A stretch of DNA of 64,000 nucleotides from a virus, in the IMG/VR virus record IMGVR_UViG_3300031964_000784; one strand, 5' to 3'. A model generated the notes under the pieces. The model was given only the letters and a program-made list of their open reading frames with translations. It ran no database searches and was not told the DNA's origin. This document shows, one piece after another, positions 4,195 to 50,322 of this stretch. Numbering within the stretch: position 1 is the stretch's first letter; each line of letters begins with the position of its first letter. A program made the position numbers and the translations under genes.

Positions 4195-4595
4195 ACGATC
4201 AGGCAGCACTGACGCGCCAGGAACGCATCGATCGCGGTCAGGCAAATCGTAAAGCGCGGGAGGAGCTTCGGAACGCGGTGCGTTTTTGCATGAAAGAGGG
4301 TGGCGTATCGCCGGCAGACATCAATAAGGCTGCGCACGATATGGCGGTAACGGAGGTGGGCCGCGTTTTGGGCAGTATCACCCTCAATCAGCTAGTGAGG
4401 AATGCTGTCGAGGTGGAAATCAGCCGACAAATGGGACTTGTGCAAAAGGCTTTGCCAGGCGGGCAGAAGATCACCGAAATGATCGCGTTGGCAATGCAGA
4501 AAGAAGCCTCACGGGTCGCTGCCGAATATATCAAAACAAACATCATCGTGTCCGTCAACGACGCCGGCGGGTACAAAGAAGGAGGGTCGTTCTAA
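4191..4595 (+). CDS. hypothetical protein
   Basis: ATGA overlap with sbcD stop; stop overlaps sbcC start. Confidence 0.65.
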   Translation: MNDQAALTRQERIDRGQANRKAREELRNAVRFCMKEGGVSPADINKAAHDMAVTEVGRVLGSITLNQLVRNAVEVEISRQMGLVQKALPGGQKITEMIALAMQKEASRVAAEYIKTNIIVSVNDAGGYKEGGSF

Positions 4596-6541
4596 TGGAT
4601 ATTACAGAACTCAGCATTAAAAACTTCCTCACGATCGGCGAAGCAGAGATCGCGCTGGACTCTCGCGGACTTTTGCTGATTCAGGGCCAGAACGACGACG
4701 ACTCAAGCGCCAAGTCGAACGGTGCCGGCAAGTCATCCATCGTCGACGCGCTGTGCTGGTGCCTCTTCGGCGAGACGGCGCGCGGCGTAACGGGTGACGC
4801 GGTAGTCAATGATACGGCCAAGAAAGACTGCGCGGTATCGGTAACGCTTGACGATGATGGCGTGTGCTATCTAGTCAGCAGGTATCGGAAGCACAAGGTC
4901 AACAAGAATCAACTGATGGTGTGGCAGATTCCAGCCGCAGGTTCGCCGATTGACCTGGCGAAGGGCACCGACAAAGAGACGCAGGAAGTCGTCTTGAAGA
5001 TTCTCGGTTGCAGCCTGGACGTTTTTAAAGGCGCGGTATATGCCGGTCAAGAGGCGATGCCAGACCTGCCAGGCATGACCGACAAGAATTTGAAGCTACT
5101 GATCGAGGAAGCCGCCGGCGTTGAGGTGTTGGCTGAAGCGTACAAGGAAGCGTCCACGCGGTCGCTGGTGGTCGAGCGGGAATTCACGGTGGCGCAGACT
5201 GCCCTGACGAGCCTGCAAGCGCGTCACGGGTCGCTGAATGCCGAGCTGGTCATCATGACAGCCGACATGGACATCTTCGAGGCGGGTCGCAAGGACAAGG
5301 CGCGACTGGAGCTGGCGAAGATCAAGCCGATGCAAGACGAAATCGACTTGCTGAAGGGGCGAATCATTGCATTTGACGAGCCGGCGCTTATCGCGGAACA
5401 GAAAAAGCTAGAAGCCAGTCTGGCCGACCATGCTGCGCAAGCGGGCGAGCTGAAGAAGCTGACCGACGCCGAGCGCGCCGCTGCCGACCATGTGAATATT
5501 GGGCGGACCGGCACGCTCTTGAAGAAAGACATCCACGACAAGCGCACGAAGGCGCTGGCTGACATCGAGTCGCAGATTGGCAAGCCATGTGGTGAGTGCG
5601 GGAAAGCCTACTGCGCTCACGATCTGGAAGCGGCCAAGGTAATGCAGCAAAAGCAGGTTGAAGCCATCAAGAAAGAGATTGTCGAACTTGCGACTGATGT
5701 GAAGACGCGGATCGTAACCCAGGCGACTGCGGCCGGCGCGGTTGAAGCCTTCAAAGCAACCATGACCGACGTATCGGTAGCGATGGCTGAAATCGGCACG
5801 ATACTGGGCACGATCGGCACTATTCAAAGCCTGCGCCGCAGGGTTGAAGACTTTGAAGCCAATATCGTCATCGTAAAAGCCGCAGCCAAGCGCCACCTGA
5901 CCGATGTCAACCCCTGGACAAAGGCGGTCGAGAACAAGACCGCCGACATTGGCAAGACTGAAGCGGACATGGCGACAAAGACTGTCGAATGCTTGGCGCT
6001 TGAAGAAAAGAAGGACATCTACGCAAGCGCGGCAAAGGTATTCGGGCCTGCCGGTGTACGGGCGCACATTCTCGATACGGTCACGCCATTCTTGAACGAA
6101 AGGACAGGTGAATATCTCGGTGCGCTGGCGGACGGCAACATTAACGCTACGTGGTCAACCTTGAGCAAGACGGCAAAAGGCGAGCTGAAGGAGAAGTTCA
6201 ACATCGAAGTGGTCAATGACAAGGGCGCCAAGTCCTTTGCGGGGCTGTCGGGCGGTGAGAAGCGCAAGGTGCGCCTGGCTGCCGCGATGGCGCTGCAAGA
6301 CATGGTGGCGAGTCGGGCAACCAAGCCAATCAATATCTTCATTGCGGACGAAGTGGATCACGCGCTCGACGAAGCCGGCTTGGAGCGCTTGATGGGCGTG
6401 CTTGAAAAGAAGGCAAAGGAGCGCGGCACCGTGTTGGTCATTTCGCACAATTCGCTGTCCGACTGGATCGATAACGTGATTACCGTCACCAAAACTGGCG
6501 GGACATCCAATGTAGCGGGGGCGACCGTTCGTGGCTTCTGA
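4595..6541 (+). CDS. sbcC: SbcC/Rad50-like SMC ATPase
   Basis: Walker A NGAGKSS, coiled coils, zinc hook CGEC, signature LSGGEKRKV, Walker B IFIADEVD. Confidence 0.93.
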   Translation: MDITELSIKNFLTIGEAEIALDSRGLLLIQGQNDDDSSAKSNGAGKSSIVDALCWCLFGETARGVTGDAVVNDTAKKDCAVSVTLDDDGVCYLVSRYRKHKVNKNQLMVWQIPAAGSPIDLAKGTDKETQEVVLKILGCSLDVFKGAVYAGQEAMPDLPGMTDKNLKLLIEEAAGVEVLAEAYKEASTRSLVVEREFTVAQTALTSLQARHGSLNAELVIMTADMDIFEAGRKDKARLELAKIKPMQDEIDLLKGRIIAFDEPALIAEQKKLEASLADHAAQAGELKKLTDAERAAADHVNIGRTGTLLKKDIHDKRTKALADIESQIGKPCGECGKAYCAHDLEAAKVMQQKQVEAIKKEIVELATDVKTRIVTQATAAGAVEAFKATMTDVSVAMAEIGTILGTIGTIQSLRRRVEDFEANIVIVKAAAKRHLTDVNPWTKAVENKTADIGKTEADMATKTVECLALEEKKDIYASAAKVFGPAGVRAHILDTVTPFLNERTGEYLGALADGNINATWSTLSKTAKGELKEKFNIEVVNDKGAKSFAGLSGGEKRKVRLAAAMALQDMVASRATKPINIFIADEVDHALDEAGLERLMGVLEKKAKERGTVLVISHNSLSDWIDNVITVTKTGGTSNVAGATVRGF

Positions 6542-8673: not shown

Positions 8674-11166
8674 ATGAAACATCTGGCAACACCCGCAAGA
8701 GAATACGCACCTGGCATGGGCATGGCGGTCGCGGACCGCACCATCAACCGGAAGATTACGCGACAGGTGCCGCTGTATAAGAAACACGTTGATTTGCCGC
8801 GCCGTGATGACATTTCGCTGGACAAGGAAGTTGCCGACTGGTGTAAGTCCAACAATCTCGTGATCGACAGCTATGAAGTGCCGCATGGTGACGGCGAAAT
8901 CGTCGAAGTGATCCTGTACGTGGTTGGCGAGGTCGAGGTTGAGAAATGGGAAGATGTGGCGTATCGGGTCGCCTTCGGCAACTCGCTGCTGCACCCGACA
9001 GCGGAAGGCGACACTCTGTACGACGCTGCGGCACGCCGCAATGCTGAATTTGAAACCATGCACCATCACTTGCGCCAGGCATCGATCTTGATGTCGGGTC
9101 GCCACTTGCAGCACGGTGACGAGACTCAACCTACCCGCAATATGGAGGTCTTCACGAACTGCTCGACTAGCGCGGCGTCGTTTCTGACCTTCTATCTGCT
9201 GCTGAACGGTTCAGGTGTCGGTCGCTCCTATGACGACGACATGCAAGTTCTCGACTTCGCTAGTCTTCCGATCGTGACATGCGTTTGCGATGCGAGCCAT
9301 GCTGACGTTCAAAACGGCACGATCAATGTGCTGGATGTGCGTACCGCGCGCCACTTGTATCACGACAAGGCTGTTCATTACTTCGAAGTGCCGGACAGCC
9401 GCGAAGGTTGGGCCAAAGCGCTCGAAAAGATGGAATTGATGGCGTATCAGTGCATTTATCGCAATGACGTTTTGTTGTTGGACTTCAGCAAGGTTCGTCC
9501 GAAAGGCTCGCCAATCATGGGAATGCAAGGGCGACCCGCGTCCGGCCCGGCTCCGTTGATGTCGGCCATTGCCAACGTGGCAAAGCTGCGCGACGCTGGA
9601 ATGTCTCGCTGGCGCTCTGCGATGTATGCCGATCACTATCTGGCCGAATGCGTTCTGGTAGGCGGTGCGCGTCGTGCTGCCCGCATGGCGACAAAGATTT
9701 GGCGCGACAAGAATGTTCTGGAATTCATCGCGGTCAAGCGCGGCGGCTTCCTCTGGTCGAGCAATAACAGCGTATTGGTGGATCAGGAATTTTGGGACGC
9801 GGTGATGAAGGCGCAGGTGCTTCTGGGCGCAGGTGCAGAAAGCTATGAACAGCTTTGGCGCGACCGTAAGATTAATGCTCTGGAACTGCACGCCTGTAAT
9901 GTATTTAATGCCGTTTGCGAAGCCGCGTATCACGACGGAACCGGCGAGCCTGGCTTGATCACGGTCGATAGGCTGACCTATTCGGACGAAGGCACAGAGG
10001 TTCTGTTCGATGGCAACTTTGCCGAGTCTGAGCGCTATAAGCTGGAGCCGGCAACGCTCGAACTGACTGCGGCACTCGCGAAAGCGTGGCAGGGCTGCCG
10101 CTATAAGGTTATCACCAACCCTTGCGGCGAGATCGTTCTGTCGGCGCTGGGCGGCTACTGTGTCATCGCTGACGTGGTGCCGTACCATGCTGGAGCTACC
10201 GGCCTGAAAGGCGAGACCCGCAAACTTACAGTTTGGGATGCCGACGCCGAAGACGCCTTCCGCACCGCAACCCGCGCGCTGATTCGCACCAACCTGATGG
10301 ACAGTCTGTACCGCAAAGAGGTACAGCGCACCAACCGGATCGGCGTCGGCATTACTGGTCTGCATGAATACGCCTGGGCGCGCTTCGCTTTCGGGTTCCG
10401 CGACATCATCGACGAAGTGAAGTCGAAGGCATTCTGGCTCACGCTGTCACGCTTCAAACGAGCGGTTCAGGACGAGGCTGCTGTTTACTCGGCACTGATT
10501 GGCGTCGTCGCGCCGCATACCGACACGACCATCAAGCCGGCCGGTACGACATCCAAGCTGTTCGGGCTGACGGAAGGCGCGCATTTGGCGTCGATGCGGG
10601 AGTTCTTGCGTTGGGTGCAGTTCCGTAACGGCGACCCGCTGATCGAGGAATACCGCGTCAAGGGCTACCCTGTCCGTGAGTTGCGTATCTATAGCGGTAC
10701 GACGATTGTCGGCTTCCCGACGCAACCGACGATCTGCCAGCTTGGCATGGGCGACCTACTTGTCACGGCGGCAGAAGCTACACCGGAAGAGCAATACCAA
10801 TACCTGCGCTTGCTGGAGAAGTATTGGATTACCGGCGTTGCGGAAGACGGCGTGACTCCATTGCGCGAGACAGGCAATCAGGTGTCTTATACATTGAAGT
10901 ATAAGCCGACTGAAGTCAGCTTCGAGGAGTTCAAGTCAACCCTGTTGGCTGGTCAATCCACGATCCGCTGCTGCTCGGTCATGCCGCAAACCGACACTTC
11001 GGCGTACGAGTACACGCCGGAGGAAATGGTGTCCAAGCATGAGTACGAAATGATCGTCAACGCGATCAAATCGGACATCAAGGAAGAGGTTGGACTGGAA
11101 CACGTCGGCTGTGCCGGCGGCGCCTGCCCGATCGACTTTGGCACCAACGAGGCGTCGGAATCATGA
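8674..11166 (+). CDS. nrdJ: class II (adenosylcobalamin-dependent) ribonucleotide reductase
   Basis: LMSGRHLQ, FTNCS, LNGSGVG, VGGARRAARM, TNPCGEI, RIGVGITG, TIKPAGTTSK; no beta-subunit gene nearby. Confidence 0.85.
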   Translation: MKHLATPAREYAPGMGMAVADRTINRKITRQVPLYKKHVDLPRRDDISLDKEVADWCKSNNLVIDSYEVPHGDGEIVEVILYVVGEVEVEKWEDVAYRVAFGNSLLHPTAEGDTLYDAAARRNAEFETMHHHLRQASILMSGRHLQHGDETQPTRNMEVFTNCSTSAASFLTFYLLLNGSGVGRSYDDDMQVLDFASLPIVTCVCDASHADVQNGTINVLDVRTARHLYHDKAVHYFEVPDSREGWAKALEKMELMAYQCIYRNDVLLLDFSKVRPKGSPIMGMQGRPASGPAPLMSAIANVAKLRDAGMSRWRSAMYADHYLAECVLVGGARRAARMATKIWRDKNVLEFIAVKRGGFLWSSNNSVLVDQEFWDAVMKAQVLLGAGAESYEQLWRDRKINALELHACNVFNAVCEAAYHDGTGEPGLITVDRLTYSDEGTEVLFDGNFAESERYKLEPATLELTAALAKAWQGCRYKVITNPCGEIVLSALGGYCVIADVVPYHAGATGLKGETRKLTVWDADAEDAFRTATRALIRTNLMDSLYRKEVQRTNRIGVGITGLHEYAWARFAFGFRDIIDEVKSKAFWLTLSRFKRAVQDEAAVYSALIGVVAPHTDTTIKPAGTTSKLFGLTEGAHLASMREFLRWVQFRNGDPLIEEYRVKGYPVRELRIYSGTTIVGFPTQPTICQLGMGDLLVTAAEATPEEQYQYLRLLEKYWITGVAEDGVTPLRETGNQVSYTLKYKPTEVSFEEFKSTLLAGQSTIRCCSVMPQTDTSAYEYTPEEMVSKHEYEMIVNAIKSDIKEEVGLEHVGCAGGACPIDFGTNEASES

Positions 11167-12101: not shown

Positions 12102-12932
12102 ATGACAATTACCGCAAAAGTGATCGAGGACTCGATCAGCGAGGATGGCAAGGGCATTACGACGCTACAGCTTTGCTACCCGCGTTTCATCCACGCCGAG
12201 TTCATGACGCACCGCGTTTTCAGCCGCAACGCATCGAGCAGCCGCGCAATTCCGGTCGCAAAGGTTATCGAGCAGGTGCGAACCAATCCGGCCATGCCGA
12301 TCCATTGGGGCAAGAATCAGCCAGGCATGCAAGCGAGCGGGCAACTGACCGGTGTCGAACTTGACCTGGCTAAACGCGAATGGCTGCAACTGGCTGACCG
12401 CGCCGCCTACACCGCTGAATGCATGGTCGAGCTTGGATTGCACAAGCAGGTTGCCAACCGCATTCTGGAGCCATTTCAGCATATCAGCGTTATCGTCACC
12501 GCGACCGATTGGAAGAACTTCTTCGCGCTGCGTGACCATCCCGACGCGCAGCCTGAAATTCGCGAGCTGGCGATTCAGATGGCGGCGGCGATGTACCAAT
12601 CGACGCCAACCGTGCGTAAGCGCGACCGCTTTGATGCGTTTAGCTGGCATTTGCCGTACATCACGGACAACGAGCGAGGCACCTACGTACCGGAATACTT
12701 GGCGAAAATATCAGGCGCGCGCTGTGCCCGTGTTTCGTATTTGACACACGAAGGCAAAGTGCCGGATCGCACCAAAGACTTGGATCTTTACACGAAGCTG
12801 GTCGGATCGGTGCCGCTTCACGCGTCGCCCATCGAGCATCAAGCCTATCCATTGCCGCTGCCATCACAGCGGTCGAACAACTTCGTCGGCTGGCGGCAAT
12901 ACCGTCAACTGGTCGAACAAACTTTTCAATAA
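12102..12932 (+). CDS. thyX: FAD-dependent thymidylate synthase
   Basis: HAEFMTHRVFSRNASSSRAIP, HKQVANRILEPF, ARCARVSY, HASPIEHQA. Confidence 0.93.
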   Translation: MTITAKVIEDSISEDGKGITTLQLCYPRFIHAEFMTHRVFSRNASSSRAIPVAKVIEQVRTNPAMPIHWGKNQPGMQASGQLTGVELDLAKREWLQLADRAAYTAECMVELGLHKQVANRILEPFQHISVIVTATDWKNFFALRDHPDAQPEIRELAIQMAAAMYQSTPTVRKRDRFDAFSWHLPYITDNERGTYVPEYLAKISGARCARVSYLTHEGKVPDRTKDLDLYTKLVGSVPLHASPIEHQAYPLPLPSQRSNNFVGWRQYRQLVEQTFQ

Positions 12933-14745: not shown

Positions 14746-15090
14746 ATGCAACTGCACATACCGCCACTCGGTGCAAAGTTGACTCTGGCGTCCGACTGGA
14801 CATTCGAGCTGTACCTGGAATACCGTAACGGCGCCATGATCGAGGCAATGAAAATCCACTTCGACAAACGCAAGTTCGGCGACGGAGAAATGTACTTGGA
14901 TTGGAATACCAATCAGCACAAGCCGGCCACGCTCCCCGCCGGCACCGAACTGATCGTTCGCCGGTACTACATTCGCTTGGGGCAAAGCGCCTTCGACAGC
15001 GTGACGTTCAGCGTCAAGGTGGGCAAAAAAAGTCATCGCTTTTGGGTGAAGCTGGCCGACGCCAACAACATCGAGCTGGCGCCGGCATGA
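14746..15090 (+). CDS. hypothetical phage protein
   Basis: RBS AGGAG; HIPPLG..LTLASDWTF...LPAGT.L.V.R.YIR pattern recalled from phage hypotheticals. Confidence 0.7.
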   Translation: MQLHIPPLGAKLTLASDWTFELYLEYRNGAMIEAMKIHFDKRKFGDGEMYLDWNTNQHKPATLPAGTELIVRRYYIRLGQSAFDSVTFSVKVGKKSHRFWVKLADANNIELAPA

Positions 15091-15668
15091 AGGCGCCAGT
15101 AACCTATAGCAGATTCATGCCAAAAGATAATGCGGACGCATGGCTGGATTATCTTTGGACAGGACTCGATTGGGTGCGCCACGACAAGGTGCCGCGCCGC
15201 GAGTATTACTGCAACGCGAAAGGCAAGCCGTATAGCTATGGCGTGAAGGATTTCGCCAGAACGTACAAGCCGCAGGTAATCAACCCGCGCTTGGCGTCAC
15301 TGTGGGCGTCGGTTGAGGAATATGTCGGCTGCGAGTTCGAGGTCTGCTTCCTCAATGGCTACGAAAACCAGTCCGATCACTTGGGCTGGCACAGCGACAA
15401 CTCGCCGGAAATGGATGACAGCCGGTCAATCGCAATCCTTACTTTTGGCGCCCAGCGAGAAATATGGTTCAGGCGGACGCCGGAGATACGATTCACCCGC
15501 GATGTCGTACCTGACATGGATCTGGAAAGACTCACGCTTGGGAACGGCAGCCTGTGCGTAATGGCGCCAGGTATGCAGGACACGCACCAGCACCGAATAC
15601 CAAAGGCCAGCTTCGTGTGCGGCAAGCGCATAAGCCTGACTTTTCGCGGCTTCGTGGAGACGACATGA
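15087..15668 (+). CDS. AlkB-like 2OG-Fe(II) dioxygenase
   Basis: CFLNGY...LGWHSD (HxD), THQHRIP (H), RISLTFR. Confidence 0.9.
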   Translation: MKAPVTYSRFMPKDNADAWLDYLWTGLDWVRHDKVPRREYYCNAKGKPYSYGVKDFARTYKPQVINPRLASLWASVEEYVGCEFEVCFLNGYENQSDHLGWHSDNSPEMDDSRSIAILTFGAQREIWFRRTPEIRFTRDVVPDMDLERLTLGNGSLCVMAPGMQDTHQHRIPKASFVCGKRISLTFRGFVETT

Positions 15669-41081: not shown

Positions 41082-42830
41082 TCATGCCGCCAGTCTCAGC
41101 TTGCCGAAGCCCAGCGCTTCAAAGTCGAAGTCATTGCCAGCCTCCAGCACGTTTTCATCAAAGCCAGGCGTTCCCTTGATAATCGCCAGTCGTTGCTGCG
41201 CGTGGCCGCGCAGGTGAAGGTTGTGGCTGTCGTCGAAGTCGGTCACGAACGACTTGTTCGGGCCTGACTTCTTCGAGCGCAGCCCGCGACCGATCCGCTG
41301 GCGTAGCGCGACCTCGGCTTTGCCGCCGCCGGCGAGGCAGATATGACCAACCGAGGGCACGTCGACGCCGACGTCAAGGATCGTGGTGCCGATCAATACG
41401 TCGATCGTTCCGTTGCCCAGGCGAGCGAGAGCGGCTTTGCGGCCATCCTGATCATCCTCGCCCTGGATGAACATGACGCGTAGGCCGCGCGCGGCCATGT
41501 CCGTCGTAAGAATCTCGCCGTGCTTCGTCTGCTGAATCAGCACCATCGACGACAGCCCGTAGCGCGTCATGCGCAGGCACTCGTCGACGATCGCCTTGTT
41601 TCGGTACTCGTTGTCGACAATCCCGATCCGATAAGCTGGCTGCCAGCCGGTGTGTTTGTGCAGCTTGGTTGGTTTGTTCGGCAGCGAAATGATCTTGAAG
41701 TGCGGCTGCGCCAGAATGCCGCGATCGATCAGCATCTTCTCGGTTATCTTAATGGCTATGGGGCCAGAGCAAGCCATTAGGCGCATATTCGACTCTTCCG
41801 AGTCCTTCATGAATGGCGTAGCGGTCAGCGCCAACCGGTAGTGTGCATTCTTGCAGTGCTGAAGGATCTCGTAATAGCTATTGCCGGACGCTTCGTGTGC
41901 TTCCTCCAGGATCACCAGACCGAACATGCCAAGCAGGTTGATCGTCTGGGCGCGTTCCTTCATGTGCTGCTCAACCTTGATCGCGGCTTTGCGCTTCATG
42001 CTCGCCTCGGTAGGGCGAGCTGCCTCCTGCTCGATCTCGAAGGTGGCCAGCGCTGCGCGAATCTTCGGCTCTGGCATTTTAATCATCTCCAGATCCTTGC
42101 GCATCGTTTTTGCCGCCTTCAGCTCCCGGTTGACCAGCGCGTCCATCATTCGTTCCAGCTCAGACTCGACCGTCTGCTCTTCGAGACGCGCGATCAAGGT
42201 CTGGACCATGCCAACGCTCATCTTGCGAACCGCAGAGCGCTCTAACCCGTCCTCGGTAATGGTGTGCCCAAACTGACCATCGCCCAATACCGATACCTTG
42301 ATCTTCAGGTCGCGCTCGAACGACTCCTTCATCTGGTACATCAGGATGCCGCGCGTGGTTAGGAAGAGGGTAGGCATGCCGAGTCGAGCAAAGGCCATCT
42401 TTGCGATACGGGATTTGCCGCCGCCGGTAGCCACCTGGGCGATGATCTGTCCATGTCTAACCAGACGATTGACGACATCGTACTGATAGTCATAGCGCGG
42501 GTCGTCACCGAACGCATCAACGATCGGTTTGAGAGGGCCAAGCGGTGTCGGCAAGGGCTTTCTAACCTGATTGACCGTGTAACCCTGTGCGCGCAGCTTG
42601 GCCGCGACAAAATGCACGAAGCCGGCAGGGAAGGTGCCGTTCTTGAAGTGGAAAAAGCTACTTCGGCCATCCCACGTGCCGCCCTTGAAGGACGTCATGT
42701 GTTCGGCGCCGGCCACCGCGTACGACAAGATCGCCTGAACCTGCATCTTGACCTCAGTCGACGGTTTGTGCAGCTTTGCCACTGTCGCGTTGCTGGCAAT
42801 TGTAATTATTTCACGCATGGGGGTTGCCAA
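41082..42830 (-). CDS. superfamily 2 (DExH) helicase
   Basis: QVATGGGKS, ILEEAHEAS, ALTATP, ILDVGVDVP, RQRIGRGLR; helical insert. Confidence 0.92.
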   Translation of the reverse strand: MATPMREIITIASNATVAKLHKPSTEVKMQVQAILSYAVAGAEHMTSFKGGTWDGRSSFFHFKNGTFPAGFVHFVAAKLRAQGYTVNQVRKPLPTPLGPLKPIVDAFGDDPRYDYQYDVVNRLVRHGQIIAQVATGGGKSRIAKMAFARLGMPTLFLTTRGILMYQMKESFERDLKIKVSVLGDGQFGHTITEDGLERSAVRKMSVGMVQTLIARLEEQTVESELERMMDALVNRELKAAKTMRKDLEMIKMPEPKIRAALATFEIEQEAARPTEASMKRKAAIKVEQHMKERAQTINLLGMFGLVILEEAHEASGNSYYEILQHCKNAHYRLALTATPFMKDSEESNMRLMACSGPIAIKITEKMLIDRGILAQPHFKIISLPNKPTKLHKHTGWQPAYRIGIVDNEYRNKAIVDECLRMTRYGLSSMVLIQQTKHGEILTTDMAARGLRVMFIQGEDDQDGRKAALARLGNGTIDVLIGTTILDVGVDVPSVGHICLAGGGKAEVALRQRIGRGLRSKKSGPNKSFVTDFDDSHNLHLRGHAQQRLAIIKGTPGFDENVLEAGNDFDFEALGFGKLRLAA

Positions 42831-42871
42831 TCAAAAATATATGGAGTAAAGTATAAGTCAGTAGTGACTTA
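42824..42871 (+). promoter_or_regulatory. promoter with perfect operator over the start site (helicase/ParB divergent region)
   Basis: TTGCCA-17-TAAAGT; TAAGTCA-GTAG-TGACTTA 42854-42871. Confidence 0.85.
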
Positions 42872-42903
42872 TTTTCAATCAATCTGGGCGTATCCATACG
42901 TTT

Positions 42904-43554
42904 ATGCAACAACAATTCAAGCAAGGCTTCGCCAATCCCGCCGATCTGGTTCCAAATCCCTGGAACACGAACAAGGTGGCTCCCGAAAACGAAGCGAAAA
43001 TCGACGCTAGTCTCAAACGATTCGGCATGTTCAAACCGATCATCGTGCGCGAACTTGCCGATGGCACGCTTCAAATTCTCGGTGGCGAACACCGACGCGA
43101 CTCCGCAATCCGAACCGAACTTGGTCAAGTGCCGATCATTAACCTCGGCAAGATCACCGATCAGCGGGCCAAAGAAATCGGCATTGCCGATAACGGCAGG
43201 TATGGATCGGATGACACGCTTCAATTGGCTGAACTCCTTGAAAGTTTGGGCGGCGCTGACGAACTTGGTACGTTTTTGCCTTACTCCGACAACGACTTCA
43301 TGTCGATCTTCTCAAGTGTGAATATAGCTCTCGATGAGCTTGATTTAGACGACGACGTACCGCCCCCAAGTAAATCTTCCGAAAAAGCGGTACAGACCCA
43401 CGCGATCATGCGATTCAAGGTGCCGGTCGGTGACGTATCGAAAATCACAGAGCGCGTCGAGAAGGTCATGAAACAGCAGCGATTCCATGACGAGGACTCC
43501 CTCGCCAACGCCGGCAATGCGCTGGTACACATTTTCTCAACGGTGGAGATCTAA
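42904..43554 (+). CDS. ParB/Sulfiredoxin N-terminal domain protein 1
   Basis: L.PNPWNTN...SLKRFGMFKPIIVR...ILGGEHR. Confidence 0.85.
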   Translation: MQQQFKQGFANPADLVPNPWNTNKVAPENEAKIDASLKRFGMFKPIIVRELADGTLQILGGEHRRDSAIRTELGQVPIINLGKITDQRAKEIGIADNGRYGSDDTLQLAELLESLGGADELGTFLPYSDNDFMSIFSSVNIALDELDLDDDVPPPSKSSEKAVQTHAIMRFKVPVGDVSKITERVEKVMKQQRFHDEDSLANAGNALVHIFSTVEI

Positions 43555-43752
43555 ATGGCGCGCTGCAATGGCAGGGGCTTTGATTGCTGCGATAGCTGCG
43601 TCAATGCCGAGTTCGACCCGCAAGAGTGCGAAATGTGCGAAGACGGCGACAAGTGGGTAGCGGACGACGACGAAACTTGGGATGACAGCAACGGCGGCGA
43701 AGATATGACCGTCCGTGACTTGGCGAACATTATCTTTTTGAAGGCGGCATAG
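43555..43752 (+). CDS. small Cys-rich acidic protein
   Basis: CCDSC...CEMC. Confidence 0.55.
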   Translation: MARCNGRGFDCCDSCVNAEFDPQECEMCEDGDKWVADDDETWDDSNGGEDMTVRDLANIIFLKAA

Positions 43753-44450
43753 TGAAAAAACTTCTACTCATTCTCATGATGCTGGCGACTGCGGCGCTCG
43801 TTACCGCCGACCAGGCGCAAGAGATCAAGGTCGATGGTGGCCTGATCGACTTCACTGCGGCGCCATGTGGCAACTGGTATCAATGTAACCAGCCGACGTT
43901 ACCCTACACGCTGCGTTTGATTCAGCCGGCAGTCTCAATCGGCGTCTTCACGGAAAAGTCTGACGACTGGCAATTTGGCGTTGGCGTCGGTGACGATCGG
44001 CGAGCTACGGTTGATGCGACGATCAAAGACGTTGACGGCTGCAAGGTTCTATCCAAGTGCGGACCATCCTCGCAAATGCAGGGGCAGGGAATGTACCTGT
44101 ACCGGTACGCCGAGGCGCGTCGATACTTTGGTGACGCCTTTATTGGTCTTGACTTTGTGGATTCGCGTACGACCTATTGGAATTGCAACGGCAACTGGTA
44201 CGGCGGGCAAGACTTCTCTGTTGGCCCGGTAAAGTCTTGTGTCAAGTATCAGCCCAAGAACATACCTGGCTGGGGCCTCACTGCCGGCTATGAATGGGGC
44301 GCCTGGTATGGCGTCTTTAGGGTTCTCCCCACCGCCGCAAACAATTCACAGCCAGATGCGCAGGCGCCTGGCGGAACCACTTGGTATCGACCTATCACAT
44401 CAAGTTCGATCGGCTTCTCGCCATATTTCGGCCTCGGTCGCACATTCTAA
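43752..44450 (+). CDS. exported beta-strand-rich protein, outer-membrane beta-barrel-like
   Basis: Signal peptide; aromatic-rich strands; C-terminal YFGLGRTF. Confidence 0.55.
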   Translation: MKKLLLILMMLATAALVTADQAQEIKVDGGLIDFTAAPCGNWYQCNQPTLPYTLRLIQPAVSIGVFTEKSDDWQFGVGVGDDRRATVDATIKDVDGCKVLSKCGPSSQMQGQGMYLYRYAEARRYFGDAFIGLDFVDSRTTYWNCNGNWYGGQDFSVGPVKSCVKYQPKNIPGWGLTAGYEWGAWYGVFRVLPTAANNSQPDAQAPGGTTWYRPITSSSIGFSPYFGLGRTF

Positions 44451-44457
44451 GGAACGT

Positions 44458-44682
44458 ATGGAAAATCAACACAAGAAAATCAATGGCTACCGTGACTTGT
44501 CGCAAGCTGAAATCGACGCGGTGAACAGGGTCAAGCAAAAAGCAGCCGAAGTAGGCGAGCTGATCTCCGATCTGCGCGCTACGCCTGGCCTCGACCAGCG
44601 CTGGATCAACATCGGCGCCACAGAGCTGCAACAGGGCTTCATGGCGATCACACGCGGCGTCGCCCAACCAACCACATTCTGA
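44458..44682 (+). CDS. acb2: Acb2-family anti-CBASS cyclic-oligonucleotide sponge
   Basis: MENQHKKINGYRDLSQAEID..NRVK and RWINIGATELQQGFMAITRGVAQPTTF closely match the recalled Acb2 sequence, including Y11 and K26. Confidence 0.9.
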   Translation: MENQHKKINGYRDLSQAEIDAVNRVKQKAAEVGELISDLRATPGLDQRWINIGATELQQGFMAITRGVAQPTTF

Positions 44683-44684
44683 AC

Positions 44685-45365
44685 ATGACCACCAAGATTA
44701 CCAAATCGCCGGTTGAGCAGCGCGACATCGGCTGGCTACGCCCCTACGCGCTCAACGCCAAAGAACATGACGACAAGCAGGTCAGCAAGATTGCGGCTTC
44801 AATGGACAAGTTTGGATGGATTGGCAACCCGATCGTAGCCAACCCGGCCGGTGACATCCTGGCGGGACATGGCCGCCGGCTCGCCGCACTCAAGCGTGGC
44901 ATGAAACAAGTGCCGGTTGAGATTATCTCCGGCCTGACAGAAGAGGAAGAGCGCGCATACCGCCTGGCGGACAACCGCGTCGCTATTTCCAACATCGACA
45001 CCGGCATCCTTCAGCAAGAGCTTGCCGGCATGTCCTTTGACCTGGACGACATCTTCGACAAAAAAGAGCTGGACTTCATGATCGCCGACATGGGCGCCCT
45101 CAACAGTGACGCTTTTATCGCTGACCTGGACGCGGCAGTGACCAGACAGGTTGAAGAAACGGCCGCGACACTGGCCGCCGTCGATGGAAAGCAAGTCAAG
45201 ATCGAAAAGGCGCTCGGCTTCAAGTCGATCAAAGGCAAGGACGAGCGCTATGTGACCATTTTCATGTCACAGCTCGAAGCTGAGACCGGCAAGACAGCCG
45301 CCGAAGCCTTCATCGACTTCGTGAAACACTTTACTCCAACCGATACGTCACTGGTGACTGCATGA
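44685..45365 (+). CDS. ParB/Sulfiredoxin N-terminal domain protein 2
   Basis: LRPYALNAKEH...SMDKFGW..NPIV...ILAGHGRRLAA...AYRLADNR. Confidence 0.9.
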   Translation: MTTKITKSPVEQRDIGWLRPYALNAKEHDDKQVSKIAASMDKFGWIGNPIVANPAGDILAGHGRRLAALKRGMKQVPVEIISGLTEEEERAYRLADNRVAISNIDTGILQQELAGMSFDLDDIFDKKELDFMIADMGALNSDAFIADLDAAVTRQVEETAATLAAVDGKQVKIEKALGFKSIKGKDERYVTIFMSQLEAETGKTAAEAFIDFVKHFTPTDTSLVTA

Positions 45366-46012
45366 AATACATAATCAATAAGCGATTCGAAACCAGAGTG
45401 GAGCGCACGCCGCGCGTACTGGAGATCGCCGAAGCGTTCGGCCTTGGACTAGACGCGAAGGAATTCGTCGTCTTCGATAACGTGGAGCTTGAGGTCGAGC
45501 AGGGCGATGTCGTCTATATCACAGGCGAGTCCGGCGGCGGCAAGTCACTTCTGTTGCGCGAGCTGCGCACACAGATGGAAGCCGGCGGTCTGAGCGTGGT
45601 GAGTATCGACGACACCGAACTGCTCGACAAGCCTCTGACCGAGCAGATTGGCTCTAGCACAAACGAAGGCACCAATTTCATGGGAATGGTCGGGATGAAC
45701 GACGCCCATATCTGGCTGCGCAACCCGTCGCAACTCTCGGACGGTCAGCGTTACCGGTTCCGGCTCGCCAAAGCGATCGAATCGGGCGCAAAGGTTTGGT
45801 TCGCCGACGAGTTCCTGGCCGTCTTGGATCGCACCGTCGCGGTCAACGTCGCCTTCAACATGCAAAAGATCGCCAGAACTGTCGGCGCCACGCTAGTTGT
45901 TGCCACCACGCACTCGGACATGATCGACGACCTGGCGCCAACTCTGCGCATCATCAAGAAATATCGCGAAAAGGTGGAAATCATTCGCGCGCCAGAAGGA
46001 TACAAGCAATGA
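45362..46012 (+). CDS. stand-alone ABC ATPase (non-transporter)
   Basis: GESGGGKS, LSDGQRYR signature, FADEF Walker B, ATTH H-loop; no permease gene nearby. Confidence 0.9.
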   Translation: MKYIINKRFETRVERTPRVLEIAEAFGLGLDAKEFVVFDNVELEVEQGDVVYITGESGGGKSLLLRELRTQMEAGGLSVVSIDDTELLDKPLTEQIGSSTNEGTNFMGMVGMNDAHIWLRNPSQLSDGQRYRFRLAKAIESGAKVWFADEFLAVLDRTVAVNVAFNMQKIARTVGATLVVATTHSDMIDDLAPTLRIIKKYREKVEIIRAPEGYKQ

Positions 46013-46368
46013 AGGAAATTCTGCACGCCAACGCCGGCTCGTTCATGTCCGACGTGCTGGCAACTTCGTACCTGGAGCCGACAGTCGTGATGTTTTCGAC
46101 GAGCTGGTGCGCCCCCTGCAAGATCATGAAGCCGCTGCTGGAGCGCCTGTCTGTAGAGCTGTACTTCCAGCTTGTGATGGTCAACGCGGACGCTACCGAT
46201 AGCCGCAGTTTGCTCTCGTCAGAATCGGTTCGCTCGGTGCCGACAATCATCGTCTATAGCAACGGCAAACAGGTTGGCGAACAACTGGTCGGCAACAAGA
46301 CCGCCTTCCAAGTTGCGAAATTTCTCCAAGAAAATGGCGTCATAGGGAGCCAAGCATGTTCAAAGTGA
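46009..46368 (+). CDS. thioredoxin-like protein
   Basis: WCAPC active site; VRSVPT cis-Pro motif; ATGA overlap. Confidence 0.85.
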   Translation: MKEILHANAGSFMSDVLATSYLEPTVVMFSTSWCAPCKIMKPLLERLSVELYFQLVMVNADATDSRSLLSSESVRSVPTIIVYSNGKQVGEQLVGNKTAFQVAKFLQENGVIGSQACSK

Positions 46369-46541
46369 TTTGCGACTGCGCGTGCGGCCTGGCCGCCATG
46401 ATCATCGCCGCAATTGGCATGCTACTACTTGTGGCCTACGTCGCGCGAAACCAGCCGTTTGCGCAAGAACGGTCATTCGTACCCCTCCAATTGAAGCGCG
46501 CCTCCAAGCGCAAACTGGCAAAACTAAGGAAAAGGAAATGA
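46356..46541 (+). CDS. small membrane protein
   Basis: One TM plus basic tail. Confidence 0.45.
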   Translation: MFKVICDCACGLAAMIIAAIGMLLLVAYVARNQPFAQERSFVPLQLKRASKRKLAKLRKRK

Positions 46542-46843
46542 AGATGAACTCTGATCAATTCGTATTTTGGCTTGAAGGCTTTATCGCGTCAGCTCCAGGA
46601 ATCACTCACCAGGCGCGTGGCGAGATTCAGGCCAAGATCCAGCAAATGCGCGAACCCGCCCCGTCGCCATATCCGCAAATCTCGGATCTGGTGTACCGAG
46701 GCACTGGCCGCCTGGCGGACGGGATTGGCGAGACCGCGCTGCCTGTTTTCGTTGCCCAGGCCGCTCATGAGGGGCACTTCCCGCATATTGGCACCCGAAC
46801 GATGTCCGCTATCCACGACTTTGGTCTTGGCGAGCTTGCATGA
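46538..46843 (+). CDS. hypothetical protein
   Basis: MNSDQFVFWLEGFI phage motif; ATGA overlaps. Confidence 0.55.
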   Translation: MKMNSDQFVFWLEGFIASAPGITHQARGEIQAKIQQMREPAPSPYPQISDLVYRGTGRLADGIGETALPVFVAQAAHEGHFPHIGTRTMSAIHDFGLGELA

Positions 46844-47823
46844 ACGTGGTTACTGATACCGCTGACTGGCTAATCACCCGCCACGAAGTGCCGAGGAATC
46901 ACAGCTTTTCGTTGTTGCCTGAGATTTACGTCGAGCGCGGCACCAAGGAAGACTGGAATCTGCTGCACGAGCTGCACTATAAGGCGGAAAACCTTGGCAT
47001 CGGCCCGAAAATATTCCGCTGTGTGCTGCGCGGGCAGGTAATTGGCGTGGGCGTCATGACGGTGCCAAAGATGTTGCTGTCGGGTCGCAATGAGGTATTT
47101 GCCAACCTGCGCCCCAACGCCGGCGGACGGGATACGCGCATGATGAATCGCCATAGGGCGCAATGGATCAACGCACATTCCTGCACCAACAGTCGCCTTG
47201 TCCTGGACACGGTGTTTCGTGGCGCCGGCATCGCGTACCGGATGCAGAACTTGATGATGCGCATGACTGGCTGCCGGTATGTCGAGTTCCAGTCTTCGAT
47301 GTCGAAGTTCAATCCGTTCGCGAGCAAGGCCGGTCTGCGCTTCACCAGGCCAAGACGGTCGGCAAGCTACGTCAGCGGGCTGGAGTGGTTTAGGCGCTGG
47401 TTCGTCTGCACTCCCTCCGATTTCGTAGGCGTGATGGAGGAGCTGGAGGCTTTGCCGCCGGCAGCGCGCGACAAGTGCATCGCTGAAATGCGGAAGTTCT
47501 ATTACAAGTCCAGCTCGATGGAGAAGTCAGGCGATAACCGCGCCAATGGCACTTCCAGAGTTGACGCAATGGACGTTCCGTATCTGCTCAAGTCGGTGCA
47601 GCAGCTTGTTTTCGCCAGTCCGCTGTATGGCGTCTATGAGAACCCAGACTTCGGCCGCAAAGCCCTGCCAGCTCGACTGCCGCTCATTGCGTTCGATAAC
47701 CAGTCGACCGACGCCTGGCTGGCTCTGAACGCGGCTGAAGAGCAACTGAGCGCAATTAAAGCACATACACCATTGATTGATTTGAATTGGGACGAAGATG
47801 AAGCTGACGACAAAGCAGTATGA
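46840..47823 (+). CDS. GNAT-fold acetyltransferase-like protein (ABC-ATPase associated)
   Basis: DWNLLHELHY start; NSRLVLDTVFRGAGIAY acetyl-CoA motif A; MSKFNPF..KAG. Confidence 0.75.
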   Translation: MNVVTDTADWLITRHEVPRNHSFSLLPEIYVERGTKEDWNLLHELHYKAENLGIGPKIFRCVLRGQVIGVGVMTVPKMLLSGRNEVFANLRPNAGGRDTRMMNRHRAQWINAHSCTNSRLVLDTVFRGAGIAYRMQNLMMRMTGCRYVEFQSSMSKFNPFASKAGLRFTRPRRSASYVSGLEWFRRWFVCTPSDFVGVMEELEALPPAARDKCIAEMRKFYYKSSSMEKSGDNRANGTSRVDAMDVPYLLKSVQQLVFASPLYGVYENPDFGRKALPARLPLIAFDNQSTDAWLALNAAEEQLSAIKAHTPLIDLNWDEDEADDKAV

Positions 47824-48130
47824 ACTGTTACGGGTGATCTCTGCCGGCAATGGCCCAGATGATCCGGCTGACCTGGATGAAGTTCTGGAGCGGGTGCGCT
47901 ATGAGGCTTCCAAGCCTGGCTTGCAGTTCCAGATCCGCGCACTGATCGCTCACGGGTTGATTGCCAGACGGGGGATCGTCAAGCGCAGGGGCCGGCAGCG
48001 ACAGGTTCTCGAAGCGACCAAGTTGGGGCATGACTACATGGTGACGAACCGCGTGGTTGCCGCCGACTATTCCGGTATTGAAGGCGAGGGGCTTGATGAG
48101 GAGCCGGCGCTGGTCGATCTATCTATCTGA
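47798..48130 (+). CDS. LexA-DBD-like winged helix-turn-helix protein
   Basis: LTTKQYELLRVI...LDEVLER...LQFQIRALIAHGLI; no peptidase domain. Confidence 0.7.
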   Translation: MKLTTKQYELLRVISAGNGPDDPADLDEVLERVRYEASKPGLQFQIRALIAHGLIARRGIVKRRGRQRQVLEATKLGHDYMVTNRVVAADYSGIEGEGLDEEPALVDLSI

Positions 48131-48146
48131 ACCGAAGCGGCGCTTG

Positions 48147-48345
48147 TTGGGGCCGCGATGGTTTATTGTTAAATCATCACTTATCTTGTTTTTATGTCAC
48201 TTATCTTTTTCGGTCTCAACATAAATACTAAGTACATTTATTAAGTAGTAAGTAATAAGTAGTTTACGAAAACGAAGGCGAACCCCAAGTGAAGATAAGT
48301 GACAGCTTAACAACTCGCGGAAAAGATAAGTCACGGGTGACTTGA
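48147..48345. repeat. AT-rich locus with inverted half-site repeats
   Basis: TTGGGGCCG 48147; TCACTTATCTT at 48177 and 48197; CCCCAAGTGA 48283; AAGATAAGT(G/C)A at 48292 and 48323; TAAGTA tandem core. Confidence 0.7.
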
Positions 48346-48370
48346 TTAAATCCACAAACTAGGATACAGT
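48327..48370 (+). promoter_or_regulatory. terminase promoter with operator over -35
   Basis: TAAGTCA-CGGG-TGACTTG; TTGATT-17-TACAGT. Confidence 0.8.
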
Positions 48371-48449
48371 GGCTACCTAGACGGCATGTTTCACACGCTG
48401 TTCTAACGGGTGCCCTCTCCGCACCCTTTTTTTTGGCCGAAAGGTTTGT

Positions 48450-49076
48450 ATGGCAACAAGTAAGGTAGCGCCGGCTCCATCAAAGCTGACGCCGAAGCAG
48501 TGGGCCGAAATTGAAGCGCTTTGGGAAGCCGGAACGCTCACGCTCGAAGATTTGAGCAAAAAGTACGGCAAGGCGGTGTCGACCTTCACGCGGCACTTCA
48601 AAGCGAAGGGAACAAAGCGCGGCTCGGCACTCGACGAGGCGAAGCAACGCGCGGCGGAAGCTCTCAAACGCAACGCCGCCGGCGACGCTGCGATATTGGC
48701 CGCCCGCATCTTCGAGACCAAGGACGAAAGTTACAAAATGCAGACCGCTATACAGCGTCTCTTTTGGAACGAAGTGCTGATCGCCAAGAACAACGGCGTC
48801 GATATCGCCACACGTATGCCCAATATCAAGGCGATCAAAGAGATTTCCGCCGGGTTGAGCATTGTTCGAAGCGAGAAGTTCGCCATCCTCGGACTCGACC
48901 GTCCAGATGCGACTGATCCGTCTGAGTTGCCAGAGCTGTTCGTGACCGAGTTGACCGCTCAAGAAATAAAAGAGTTACGCGACAGAGACATTACTGAGCT
49001 AGATGACATTGTGCCCGCCCAGATCGCCCTTGATGACGCTCCAGACGACGAGATAGTCGACGAGAGCGATTCGTAA
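48450..49076 (+). CDS. terS: terminase small subunit
   Basis: N-terminal HTH (LTPKQWAEIEALWEAG..TLEDLSKKYG); directly precedes terL. Confidence 0.8.
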   Translation: MATSKVAPAPSKLTPKQWAEIEALWEAGTLTLEDLSKKYGKAVSTFTRHFKAKGTKRGSALDEAKQRAAEALKRNAAGDAAILAARIFETKDESYKMQTAIQRLFWNEVLIAKNNGVDIATRMPNIKAIKEISAGLSIVRSEKFAILGLDRPDATDPSELPELFVTELTAQEIKELRDRDITELDDIVPAQIALDDAPDDEIVDESDS

Positions 49077-49077
49077 T

Positions 49078-50322
49078 ATGGCGGTGCGCAACTCGCTCAC
49101 ACTGCACACCAAGCAAATGGAGGTGTACAAGTCCAAGGCGCGCTTTCGCGTCGTTGTAGCGGGTCGTCGGTGGGGCAAGACGGCGTTGTCGCGAGTTCTC
49201 ATCATTACGCGGGCCAAGGTCAAGAAGCGCAAAATCTGGTACGTGGCGCCTACATACCGGATGGCGAAGCAGATCATGTGGGTCGACCTGCTGGACGCAA
49301 TACCGAAAAAGTGGATTCGCAAGATCAACGAGACCACGCTGACGATCGTTCTGGTCAACGGCACCCGCATCGAGCTGAAGGGCGCCGATAAGCCGGACTC
49401 ACTGCGCGGGGTCGGCGTGGATTTCCTGGTGTTGGATGAATTTCAGGACATTAGCGAGATCACCTGGACGCAGGTATTGCGCCCAACTCTGGCCGACCGC
49501 CGTGGCGAAGCCATCTTCATCGGCACGCCAAAGGCATACAACTACCTTTACGACCTGTACAAGCGCGGGCAGGACTCGATCGCTGTCGCCAAGAATCTCT
49601 GGCAGTCATGGCAGTTCCCAACCATCACGTCGCCCTTCATCCCGCTGTCGGAAATAGAGGCGGCACGCGCCGACATGGACGAAAAATCGTTCAAGCAGGA
49701 GTTCGAAGCCAGCTTCGAAACGATGTCCGGTCGCGTCTACTACCCGTTCGAGCGCGACATTCATGTTGGCAAATACGCCTTCAATCCAAAACTGCCGATC
49801 TGGGTGGGGATGGACTTCAACATTGACCCAATGTCCACTGTCATATTCCAGCCGCAGCCAAATGGTGAGCTGTGGGCGGTGGATGAGATCGTGCTGTTTG
49901 GCTCGAATACCGAAGAAATATGTAATGAGCTGGAGCGCCGGTATTGGCGCAACCAGTTGCAAGTCGTGGTCTACCCCGATCCGGCCGGCGGTTCCAGGCA
50001 GCACGCGCGCGGCGAGACTGACGTGGACATTCTGCGCGAGAAGGGCTTCAAGCGGGTCAAGTATCGCAAGAAACACCCCGCCGTTGCTGACCGTGTGAAC
50101 GCGGTCAACCGAATGCTGCGGGCAGCAAATGGCGACATCAGGATGCGCGTAGACGAGAAGTGCAAGCACTTCATCAATGCGCTTGAGCAGACGATTTACC
50201 AAAAGGGGTCTCGCGACGTGGACAAAAAAGCGGGCGTTGAACACTCGGCCGATGCGGGTGGCTATTGCGTCGAGCTGGAATACCCGGTGCGCAAGGTTCA
50301 AATTGGCGGCATTTCTCGTTAG
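49078..50322 (+). CDS. terL: terminase large subunit
   Basis: VAGRRWGKT Walker A, LVLDEF, FIGTP, GMDFN nuclease motif, HSADA. Confidence 0.95.
   Translation: MAVRNSLTLHTKQMEVYKSKARFRVVVAGRRWGKTALSRVLIITRAKVKKRKIWYVAPTYRMAKQIMWVDLLDAIPKKWIRKINETTLTIVLVNGTRIELKGADKPDSLRGVGVDFLVLDEFQDISEITWTQVLRPTLADRRGEAIFIGTPKAYNYLYDLYKRGQDSIAVAKNLWQSWQFPTITSPFIPLSEIEAARADMDEKSFKQEFEASFETMSGRVYYPFERDIHVGKYAFNPKLPIWVGMDFNIDPMSTVIFQPQPNGELWAVDEIVLFGSNTEEICNELERRYWRNQLQVVVYPDPAGGSRQHARGETDVDILREKGFKRVKYRKKHPAVADRVNAVNRMLRAANGDIRMRVDEKCKHFINALEQTIYQKGSRDVDKKAGVEHSADAGGYCVELEYPVRKVQIGGISR

Follow-up and report, generated by a model that had tools for sequence, protein, structure and literature searches.

The closest described relatives of the system considered here are the ABC ATPase-GNAT proteins (COG2401, or 'MK0520'-type), for which the Aravind group has predicted acylation of a DNA base (PMC7824862, section 3.4.7, citing ref. 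136). Phage ParB-fold proteins offer a second comparison. A phage thymine dioxygenase acts on double-stranded DNA only with a cognate ParB-fold protein that lacks a DNA-binding domain (PMC13229309). Proteins of this fold, which are also found as fusions to methyltransferases and acetyltransferases, bind CTP, ATP or GTP, an acetyltransferase-fused member binding GTP (PMC12704722). Here we describe a cassette at positions 42904-48130 of IMG/VR virus record IMGVR_UViG_3300031964_000784, in which an ABC ATPase and a GNAT-fold protein are encoded together with two ParB-fold proteins and a winged helix-turn-helix (wHTH) protein; the whole stretch analysed, 64,000 nucleotides long, is referred to as the window. 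The cassette forms a single transcription unit in an SSU5-type siphovirus or phage-plasmid of peat-metagenome origin, and combines a conserved core with variable cargo in a mosaic. An earlier interpretation made from the DNA letters alone (the sequence-only reading) had proposed that the cassette is an ATP-driven acyl-transfer system that modifies DNA, with a redox- or metal-dependent step and coupling to packaging.

The ABC ATPase, the GNAT-fold protein and the ParB-fold proteins

The ATPase gene (45362..46012, + strand) codes for a soluble ABC-type protein of 216 amino acids (PF00005, E 9e-13; phrog_293, E 4e-46). Its Walker A, LSDGQ signature, Walker B and H-loop histidine are invariant in 64 orthologues, as is an N-terminal segment (residues 15-38) that precedes the nucleotide-binding domain. 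The operon encodes no permease of the kind that partners an ABC transporter, its sole membrane open reading frame (ORF) being a 61-amino-acid peptide that is absent from all 65 relatives introduced below, and the description of a soluble ATPase with no permease in the sequence-only reading was therefore accurate. Many records label both this gene and the GNAT gene 'ABC transporter'.

The GNAT-fold protein (46840..47823, + strand; 327 amino acids; phrog_886, E 3e-128) has an AlphaFold2 model with a mean predicted local distance difference test score (pLDDT) of 85 and a predicted template-modelling score of 0.78, in which a GNAT fold carries a helical insertion at residues ~177-258. A structure search returned 137 chains at Z>=8, and all of the matches listed (Z 9.3-11.2) are GNATs. 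Motif A, FRGAGIA, spans residues 126-132 (47215-47235); 12 residues are invariant in 26 homologues down to 22% identity, including R127, G128 and G130 of this motif, and further invariant positions are H46, Y47, R83, R119, E149 and N158. The invariance of motif A argues for GNAT catalysis, and together with the model and the GNAT matches at Z 10-11 it bears out the earlier assignment of a GNAT fold with FRGAGIA. The protein matches no Pfam family at E<=0.1, including the Mom family PF25680, and no NCBIfam family, and among PDB sequences its alignment profile found only weak GNAT motif-A matches (best E 0.015).

An exhaustive profile search recovered many fused proteins of ~450-500 amino acids in which an N-terminal ABC domain is followed by a GNAT-like domain, and homologues of the GNAT protein are named in their sources 'ABC-type ATPase with predicted acetyltransferase domain'. 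On at least 24 contigs a single ORF of 1260 codons joins a family-B DNA polymerase, with exonuclease and polymerase domains, to an ABC and a GNAT domain (P0196; L092:6001-9783 and L093:6001-9783). The ABC part of this fusion is 45% identical to the window ABC protein (E 8e-60, N-terminal segment included), and the GNAT part, in which the motifs HY and FRGxG are retained, is 29% identical to the window GNAT protein (E 1e-21). The genes around the polymerase fusion are those of a viral replication module (Prim-Pol, RecA/Rad51, 5'-3' exonuclease, SbcC-like), and other fusions adjoin DnaB, DHH, gyrase, primase, MCM-type and RecA genes. Some fusions have unusual additions, among them an intein with LAGLIDADG inside the ABC domain and a TFIIB-like repeat (P0181; P0169).

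From these homologies we regard the window ABC and GNAT proteins as the probable split form of the ABC ATPase-GNAT system, acting together. The two share with that system the ABC nucleotide-binding domain and the GNAT domain, intact motifs and a viral setting, and ATPase and GNAT are encoded in the same operon at 65 of 65 loci. The window pair differs from the fused proteins in being split, with three cargo genes between its members, and in being accompanied by two ParB paralogues and a wHTH protein; the function of the whole family is itself a prediction.

ParB1 (42904..43554, + strand; 216 amino acids; Pfam ParB_N PF02195, E 2.3e-8; phrog_723, E 1e-59) and ParB2 (44685..45365, + strand; 226 amino acids; phrog_930, E 8e-68) each have a ParB/Srx N-domain, which in ParB2 is joined to a C-terminal helical domain, and they are 30% identical to each other in the N-domain only. 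The residues of box II (G-x-x-R) and box III (D-N-x-R) do not vary in either paralogue across about 60 orthologues each (G60 G61 H63 R64 and D96 N97 R99 in 62 orthologues of ParB1; G61 H62 G63 R64 and D96 N97 R98 in those of ParB2), from which we predict that both ParBs probably still bind nucleotide. Neither protein matches a ParB helix-turn-helix (HTH) or ParB_C family of Pfam at E<=0.1, in agreement with the earlier statement that both ParB/Srx proteins lack a centromere-binding HTH. The AlphaFold2 model of ParB2 (pLDDT 83) consists of an N-domain modelled with confidence (residues 1-103), a linker of low confidence and, at the C-terminus, a helical domain (148-216); an HTH may lie within the modelled linker (residues 106-133). 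The best Foldseek matches of the N-domain are Noc, ParB-CDP, pNOB8 ParB and KorB.

Residues 3-160 of ParB2 align with the N-terminal module of ParB-DNA methyltransferase fusions (phrog_498, E 4e-33; PADLOC MTase_II PDLC03229, E 5e-20). ParB2 differs from these in having no methyltransferase domain, and its catalytic partner would be the separate ABC-GNAT pair. A PADLOC scan gave only ParB-methyltransferase and weak ATPase matches and no defence system, and an NCBIfam search gave nothing specific for ParB2, the GNAT protein or the wHTH protein. In Pseudomonas phage nickie, the 230-amino-acid ParB2 orthologue gp158 (L088:2798-3490) is labelled 'DNA methyltransferase', a label that seemingly derives from the ParB-methyltransferase PHROG. 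By its description, the ParB of the 5mYOX system (PMC13229309) may be comparable: it is a small ParB-fold protein of phages that combines a nucleotide-binding domain with a helical one at the C-terminus, in which no DNA-binding domain can be recognised, and its gene neighbours that of a DNA-modifying enzyme. That system differs in having an Fe(II)/2-oxoglutarate dioxygenase as its enzyme and one ParB, whereas the window has an ABC-GNAT pair and two ParBs.

Complex prediction, one of the checks proposed with the sequence-only reading, lends weak support to a contact between ParB2 and the GNAT protein, which we treat as a hint only. ParB2 modelled against ABC plus GNAT scores 0.56 where the best control scores 0.00, and the score falls to 0.00 once the GNAT chain is replaced; the runs share at least 76% of their contacts, with partner pLDDT of at least 70. 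The mark used for these scores is reached by 58 of 80 solved complexes and by 2 of 110 mismatched pairs, and the range up to 0.60 contains only 7 of the 80 solved complexes together with both mismatches. The case for linking the ParBs to the ABC-GNAT pair is built mainly on strict synteny, on ParB2 being homologous to ParB-methyltransferase modules, and on outside precedent, both from the 5mYOX ParB and from the nucleotide-binding, enzyme-fused proteins of this fold.

Conserved core and variable cargo

The cassette comprises 11 ORFs on the + strand, and all 10 junctions between them have gaps of -26 to +7 nucleotides. This spacing agrees with the earlier claim that all the genes are translationally coupled, and we take coupling across the 11-gene unit to be real on the strength of it. 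The title of the sequence-only reading had listed two ParBs, an ABC ATPase, a thioredoxin, a GNAT and a wHTH; each of these is in its place, and the unit contains five further ORFs that the title left out (four besides the Cys-rich miniprotein). The last gene is indeed a wHTH, encoding an acidic-tailed protein of 110 amino acids (47798..48130, + strand; phrog_900, E 2e-14) whose Atlas model has a PadR/MarR-like fold (TM 0.62-0.71).

A scan of IMG/VR identified 80 related loci with GNAT identities of 62-83%, and gene counts were taken from the 65 that span the interval from the helicase gene to terS. ParB1, ParB2, ABC, GNAT and terS are each present at all 65 loci, and the wHTH gene at 56 of them (tblastn). 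The same five core genes occupy the same place, between helicase and terS, in SSU5, Rhizobium phage RHph_X66, Pseudomonas phage nickie and Stenotrophomonas phage BUCTxx99. BUCTxx99 has the bare five-gene core, and SSU5, RHph_X66 and nickie have the core with other inserts. Conservation of the cassette across phage-plasmids had been suggested as a check, and the five-gene core is kept from SSU5 to the Stenotrophomonas phage. The core is therefore ParB1, ParB2, ABC, GNAT and wHTH, and the other six genes of the window unit are variable cargo.

Three of the six cargo genes lie between the ParB genes. The first codes for the Cys-rich miniprotein (43555..43752, + strand; 65 amino acids), a zinc-ribbon-like protein with two CxxC pairs that is present at 16 of the 65 loci and has no family match in Pfam and PHROG searches. 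The second (43752..44450, + strand) codes for a secreted protein of 232 amino acids with a signal-peptide-like N-terminus, an outer-membrane-protein beta-barrel-like character (Atlas feature matches 0.97) and a C-terminus ending in GRTF; it is found at none of the 65 loci, being unique to the window phage among these relatives, and is likely a cargo gene (moron). The third (44458..44682, + strand) codes for a 74-amino-acid protein with an Acb2/Tad1-hairpin domain (PF24729, E 6e-17, 62 bits against a cut-off of 27, covering the full profile 1-58). It is a putative anti-defence gene of the cyclic-nucleotide-sponge type, and occurs at nine of the 65 loci.

The remaining three lie between the ABC and GNAT genes. 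The thioredoxin gene (46009..46368, + strand; 119 amino acids; PF00085, E 1e-17, 64 bits against a cut-off of 23.5) has the WCAPC motif at residues 33-37, so that the WCAPC thioredoxin of the sequence-only reading is present as described. It is followed by the gene for the single-pass membrane peptide (46356..46541, + strand; 61 amino acids), which was recognised by its hydrophobic stretch, and by a gene for a 101-amino-acid protein (46538..46843, + strand) that is present at two of the 65 loci, has no family match in Pfam and PHROG searches, and has Atlas matches to viral hypothetical proteins only.

What lies between the core genes differs from phage to phage, and the cassette can thus be described as a conserved scaffold that offers slots for cargo. 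From their gene content, the slots look like hot spots for counter-defence cargo. In RHph_X66, a Tad2-like protein is encoded in a cassette gap (L001:7431-7724; PF11195, E 2e-16).

The predicted reaction and its alternatives

The reading that we tentatively favour is that a ParB-loaded, ATP-driven GNAT uses acyl-CoA to acylate a base in the phage DNA. The GNAT domain would bind the activated acyl donor, and the invariance of its pyrophosphate-binding motif R-G-x-G-x-A makes acyl-CoA the most likely one. The ABC dimer, closing with ATP, would position or open the substrate; the closest working analogue is TmcA/NAT10, whose helicase domain assists the GNAT in acetylating cytidine N4. The two ParB-fold proteins, as nucleoside triphosphate switches, would bring the enzyme onto double-stranded phage DNA or activate it there, in the manner of the cognate ParB with thymine dioxygenases, and a DNA base would end up with an acyl mark. 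In this scheme DNA as the target, acyl-CoA as the donor and ParB as the loader are what we infer, whereas the gene structure, the folds, the conservation of motifs, the division into core and cargo and the fusions are observed directly. ATP-driven acylation of DNA is already in print as a prediction in the section of PMC7824862 named above, and is not new; a literature search on SSU5-type ParB/ABC/terminase genes and on COG2401/MK0520 ABC-GNAT proteins gave nothing further of relevance. The present analysis adds the core and cargo numbers, the slot behaviour of the thioredoxin, the polymerase fusion and the weak ParB2-GNAT docking signal. A more specific version, in which the core is a ParB-loaded ATP-driven enzyme that marks phage DNA during replication with an acyl group not described so far, such as that of N4-acetylcytosine, is polymerase-fused in some viruses and, in this clade, perhaps has the thioredoxin as a dedicated partner, we consider rather doubtful.

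Several points weigh against DNA acylation by a core with variable cargo. A GNAT fold by itself does not identify the acceptor, and most GNATs acetylate proteins or small molecules. No modified base is known from SSU5-type phages. None of the fused proteins scanned joins a ParB to ABC-GNAT, and for that reason the ParB link rests on synteny and the weak complex score. In 82% of the clade the thioredoxin stays in a single slot although its median identity is only 30%, which its interpretation as cargo explains incompletely. Finally, an acyl group on adenine N6 is calculated to be unstable (PMC13219725), so a simple acyl-adenine mark is unlikely to persist.

A protein acceptor is the alternative that survives best, although we think it unlikely. 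The ABC-GNAT pair would then acetylate a host protein, a phage replication or packaging protein, or its own ABC or ParB partners, and the ParB and wHTH proteins would only tether it to DNA. Most characterised GNATs act on proteins, as do most of the top structural matches of the window protein (RimI, Naa10/50/60), and the DNA polymerase fusion would equally fit modification of a replisome protein. The phiKMV Rac protein acetylates RNA polymerase, and Eco1 acetylates the ABC head of Smc3. Phage GNATs that modify host proteins have been reviewed (PMC7824862). The structural matches do not discriminate the acceptor, since all their Z values are tied at ~10. Two observations speak against a protein target and point to nucleic acid: the ABC-GNAT pair is strictly associated with two ParB-fold proteins that share homology with the ParB module of DNA methyltransferases, and its neighbourhoods are consistently those of DNA metabolism.

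The same tie bears on the phage Mu enzyme Mom (PDB 8bv8), which the sequence-only reading had invoked as a precedent. Mom shares with the window protein the GNAT fold and is a phage enzyme acting on double-stranded DNA after replication, and 8bv8 matches at Z 10.0 (root-mean-square deviation 3.4 over 141 residues), tied with dozens of unrelated GNATs. A specific likeness to Mom is not upheld, there being no PF25680 match; Mom also differs in needing no ATPase or ParB, and it needs a rearrangement and uses Gly-tRNA as donor, not acyl-CoA (PMC13219725).

It is improbable, in our judgement, that the cassette makes no covalent mark at all, with the ParB clamps and the ABC dimer organising, marking or holding replicated DNA for the terminase or replisome and the GNAT having a cofactor-sensing or structural role. 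ParB and SMC-type ABC proteins do cooperate in chromosome organisation, the nucleotide-binding boxes of both ParBs are conserved, and the cassette adjoins terS (48450-49076, + strand) and terL (49078-50322, + strand) in every SSU5-type relative. The ATPase, however, is a plain transporter-type nucleotide-binding domain without a coiled coil, and motif A of the GNAT is invariant. Nor is the cassette joined to the terminase genes: it is separated from terS by an AT-rich spacer of 319 nucleotides (48131-48449) with a strong terminator-like hairpin and T8 at its 3' end (48408..48434, + strand), 16 nucleotides 5' of the terS start. The AT-rich locus at which the unit was said to end before terS is thus present, but it sets the cassette apart, and because of the spacer and hairpin we view the cassette as its own transcription unit, unfused to the terminase genes. 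Moreover, Pelagibacter, Vibrio, Ralstonia and Komagataeibacter phages have homologous terL and portal genes (31-45% identity) and no cassette. Since the fused ABC-GNAT proteins occur in replication modules and such terminase relatives do without the cassette, the ABC-GNAT pair belongs with DNA metabolism generally and is not obligatory for packaging, and the packaging coupling proposed earlier is not supported.

An RNA acceptor, with TmcA/NAT10-like ATP-dependent N4-acetylation of cytidine in tRNA or mRNA that would, for example, tune translation or shield tRNAs from host anticodon nucleases, is given little credence here. TmcA and NAT10, in which an ATPase is fused to a GNAT, rank 5-6 among the best Foldseek matches of the GNAT protein (E about 3e-4), and no other ATPase-coupled GNAT with a nucleobase as its substrate has been characterised (PMC13219725). 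They resemble the window pair in coupling an NTPase to a GNAT that acts on a nucleobase, and differ in their RecD-like helicase ATPase, RNA substrate and lack of a ParB partner, whereas the window ATPase is an ABC nucleotide-binding domain. The ParB-fold partners and the DNA replication and packaging neighbours also speak for DNA, and the polymerase fusion is hard to reconcile with an RNA target.

The favoured reading of DNA acylation counts none of the six cargo genes among its steps, the thioredoxin and the Cys-rich miniprotein included, and we find it very unlikely that these two and all the other genes named in the sequence-only reading are steps of one redox- or metal-dependent DNA-modification pathway. 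The observation in its favour is positional: in a profile search, a thioredoxin-like ORF with CxPC occupies exactly the slot between ABC and GNAT at 62 of 76 loci and never either of the other two slots. It is, however, missing at 14 of the 76 close loci, in one of which (L010) the ABC and GNAT genes directly overlap, and both it and the Cys-rich protein are variable inserts that are absent from SSU5, RHph_X66, nickie, BUCTxx99 and the fused ABC-GNAT proteins. The thioredoxin also evolves out of step with the core, its median identity across loci being 30% against 56% for ParB2, 65% for GNAT and 72% for ABC, and its pairwise identities correlating with those of GNAT at a Spearman coefficient of 0.39, compared with 0.70 for ABC. 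The Cys-rich gene, as noted, is at a minority of loci, and the same kind of slot holds anti-defence genes, Acb2/Tad1-like in the window and Tad2-like in RHph_X66.

An ordinary client for the thioredoxin is at hand. Reducing ribonucleotide reductase is the established job of phage thioredoxins and glutaredoxins, and the window encodes a class II (B12-type) enzyme (8674..11166, + strand; PF21995, E 1e-12; PF02867, E 1e-8). A ribonucleotide reductase large subunit, class I-like or class II, is likewise encoded by all five complete relatives checked. Because the thioredoxin is absent in some relatives, evolves uncoupled from the core and has this client, we regard it as frequent but dispensable cargo that most plausibly reduces the phage's own reductase; a gene so faithful to its slot and yet so divergent would reflect either repeated capture or fast drift. 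The idea that the thioredoxin tracks the class II reductase was considered and rejected, as it occurs with either class and one relative has a reductase and no thioredoxin.

That the two ParBs segregate a phage-plasmid prophage by plasmid partition is scarcely credible: both have the N-terminal nucleotide-binding ParB_N domain of canonical ParB and carry database names such as 'ParB-like partition protein', but against the full-length model TIGR00180 ParB1 scores 32 bits, far under the cut-off of 58, and ParB2 has no match, neither has an HTH or C-terminal dimerisation family match, no ParA-type gene lies in the cassette or anywhere between 41082 and 50322, a separate ParA-like gene is found elsewhere in RHph_X66, and the cassette is always tied to ABC-GNAT and adjoins virion genes.

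Acylation of DNA by the ABC-GNAT core, as first proposed from the sequence, is supported in outline by the ABC-GNAT fusions, the homology of ParB2 to ParB-methyltransferase modules and the precedent in PMC13229309, whereas its redox step and its packaging coupling are not supported.

Control of the unit and meaning of the cassette

Upstream of ParB1 is a divergent intergenic region of 73 nucleotides, beyond which lies a superfamily 2 helicase gene (41082..42830, - strand) that is syntenic in all relatives. The intergenic region contains a perfect palindrome, ATAAGTCA-GTAG-TGACTTAT (42853..42872, no strand assigned), and directly 5' of this a consensus scan picked out a candidate sigma-70-like promoter, TTGCCA-17-TAAAGT (42824..42852, + strand). 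A promoter-like site for the divergent helicase gene, from the same kind of scan, overlaps this candidate on the - strand. The sequence-only reading had one operon starting at a perfect operator (42854). Both the unit and the palindrome are real, but the palindrome is one of 17 sites in the window that match AAGTCA-N4-TGACTT with at most one mismatch, where 0.1 would be expected. These sites are mostly intergenic and lie in the early and virion regions (for example at 2669, 24802, 42855, 48328, 52990, 54044 and 59201). By its distribution, the motif would be a phage-wide control element and not specific to the cassette, and it looks like a candidate binding site of a single phage-wide regulator. 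In the spacer before terS there are several ATAAGT(G/C)AC half-sites and one full palindrome (48328-48343), and from its sequence features the spacer may serve as a pac/cos region or as the point where entry into the late operon is regulated or antiterminated.

Elsewhere in the window, the phage codes for further proteins of DNA and nucleotide metabolism. These are a RecA-like protein (446-1528), an SbcCD-like pair of a Metallophos protein and an SMC_N ATPase (3151-6541), a ThyX-type thymidylate synthase (12102-12932) and an AlkB-type 2-oxoglutarate-Fe(II) oxygenase (14901-15668).

The window is an expanded example of a system already predicted, and the source of core and cargo statistics for it; it does not represent a new kind of system. 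For annotation, it corrects three habitual mislabels of the core genes, 'ABC transporter', 'partition protein' and 'DNA methyltransferase'. The carriers form a super-group of ~105-120 kb phages and phage-plasmids of Salmonella, Klebsiella, Escherichia coli, Rhizobium, Pseudomonas and Stenotrophomonas, together with many uncultured viruses. If the prediction is true, these viruses would modify DNA bases by a new enzymatic route, in which acyl transfer depends on ATP and ParB; this would bear on how they evade restriction and on the growing role of ParB-fold switches outside chromosome segregation.

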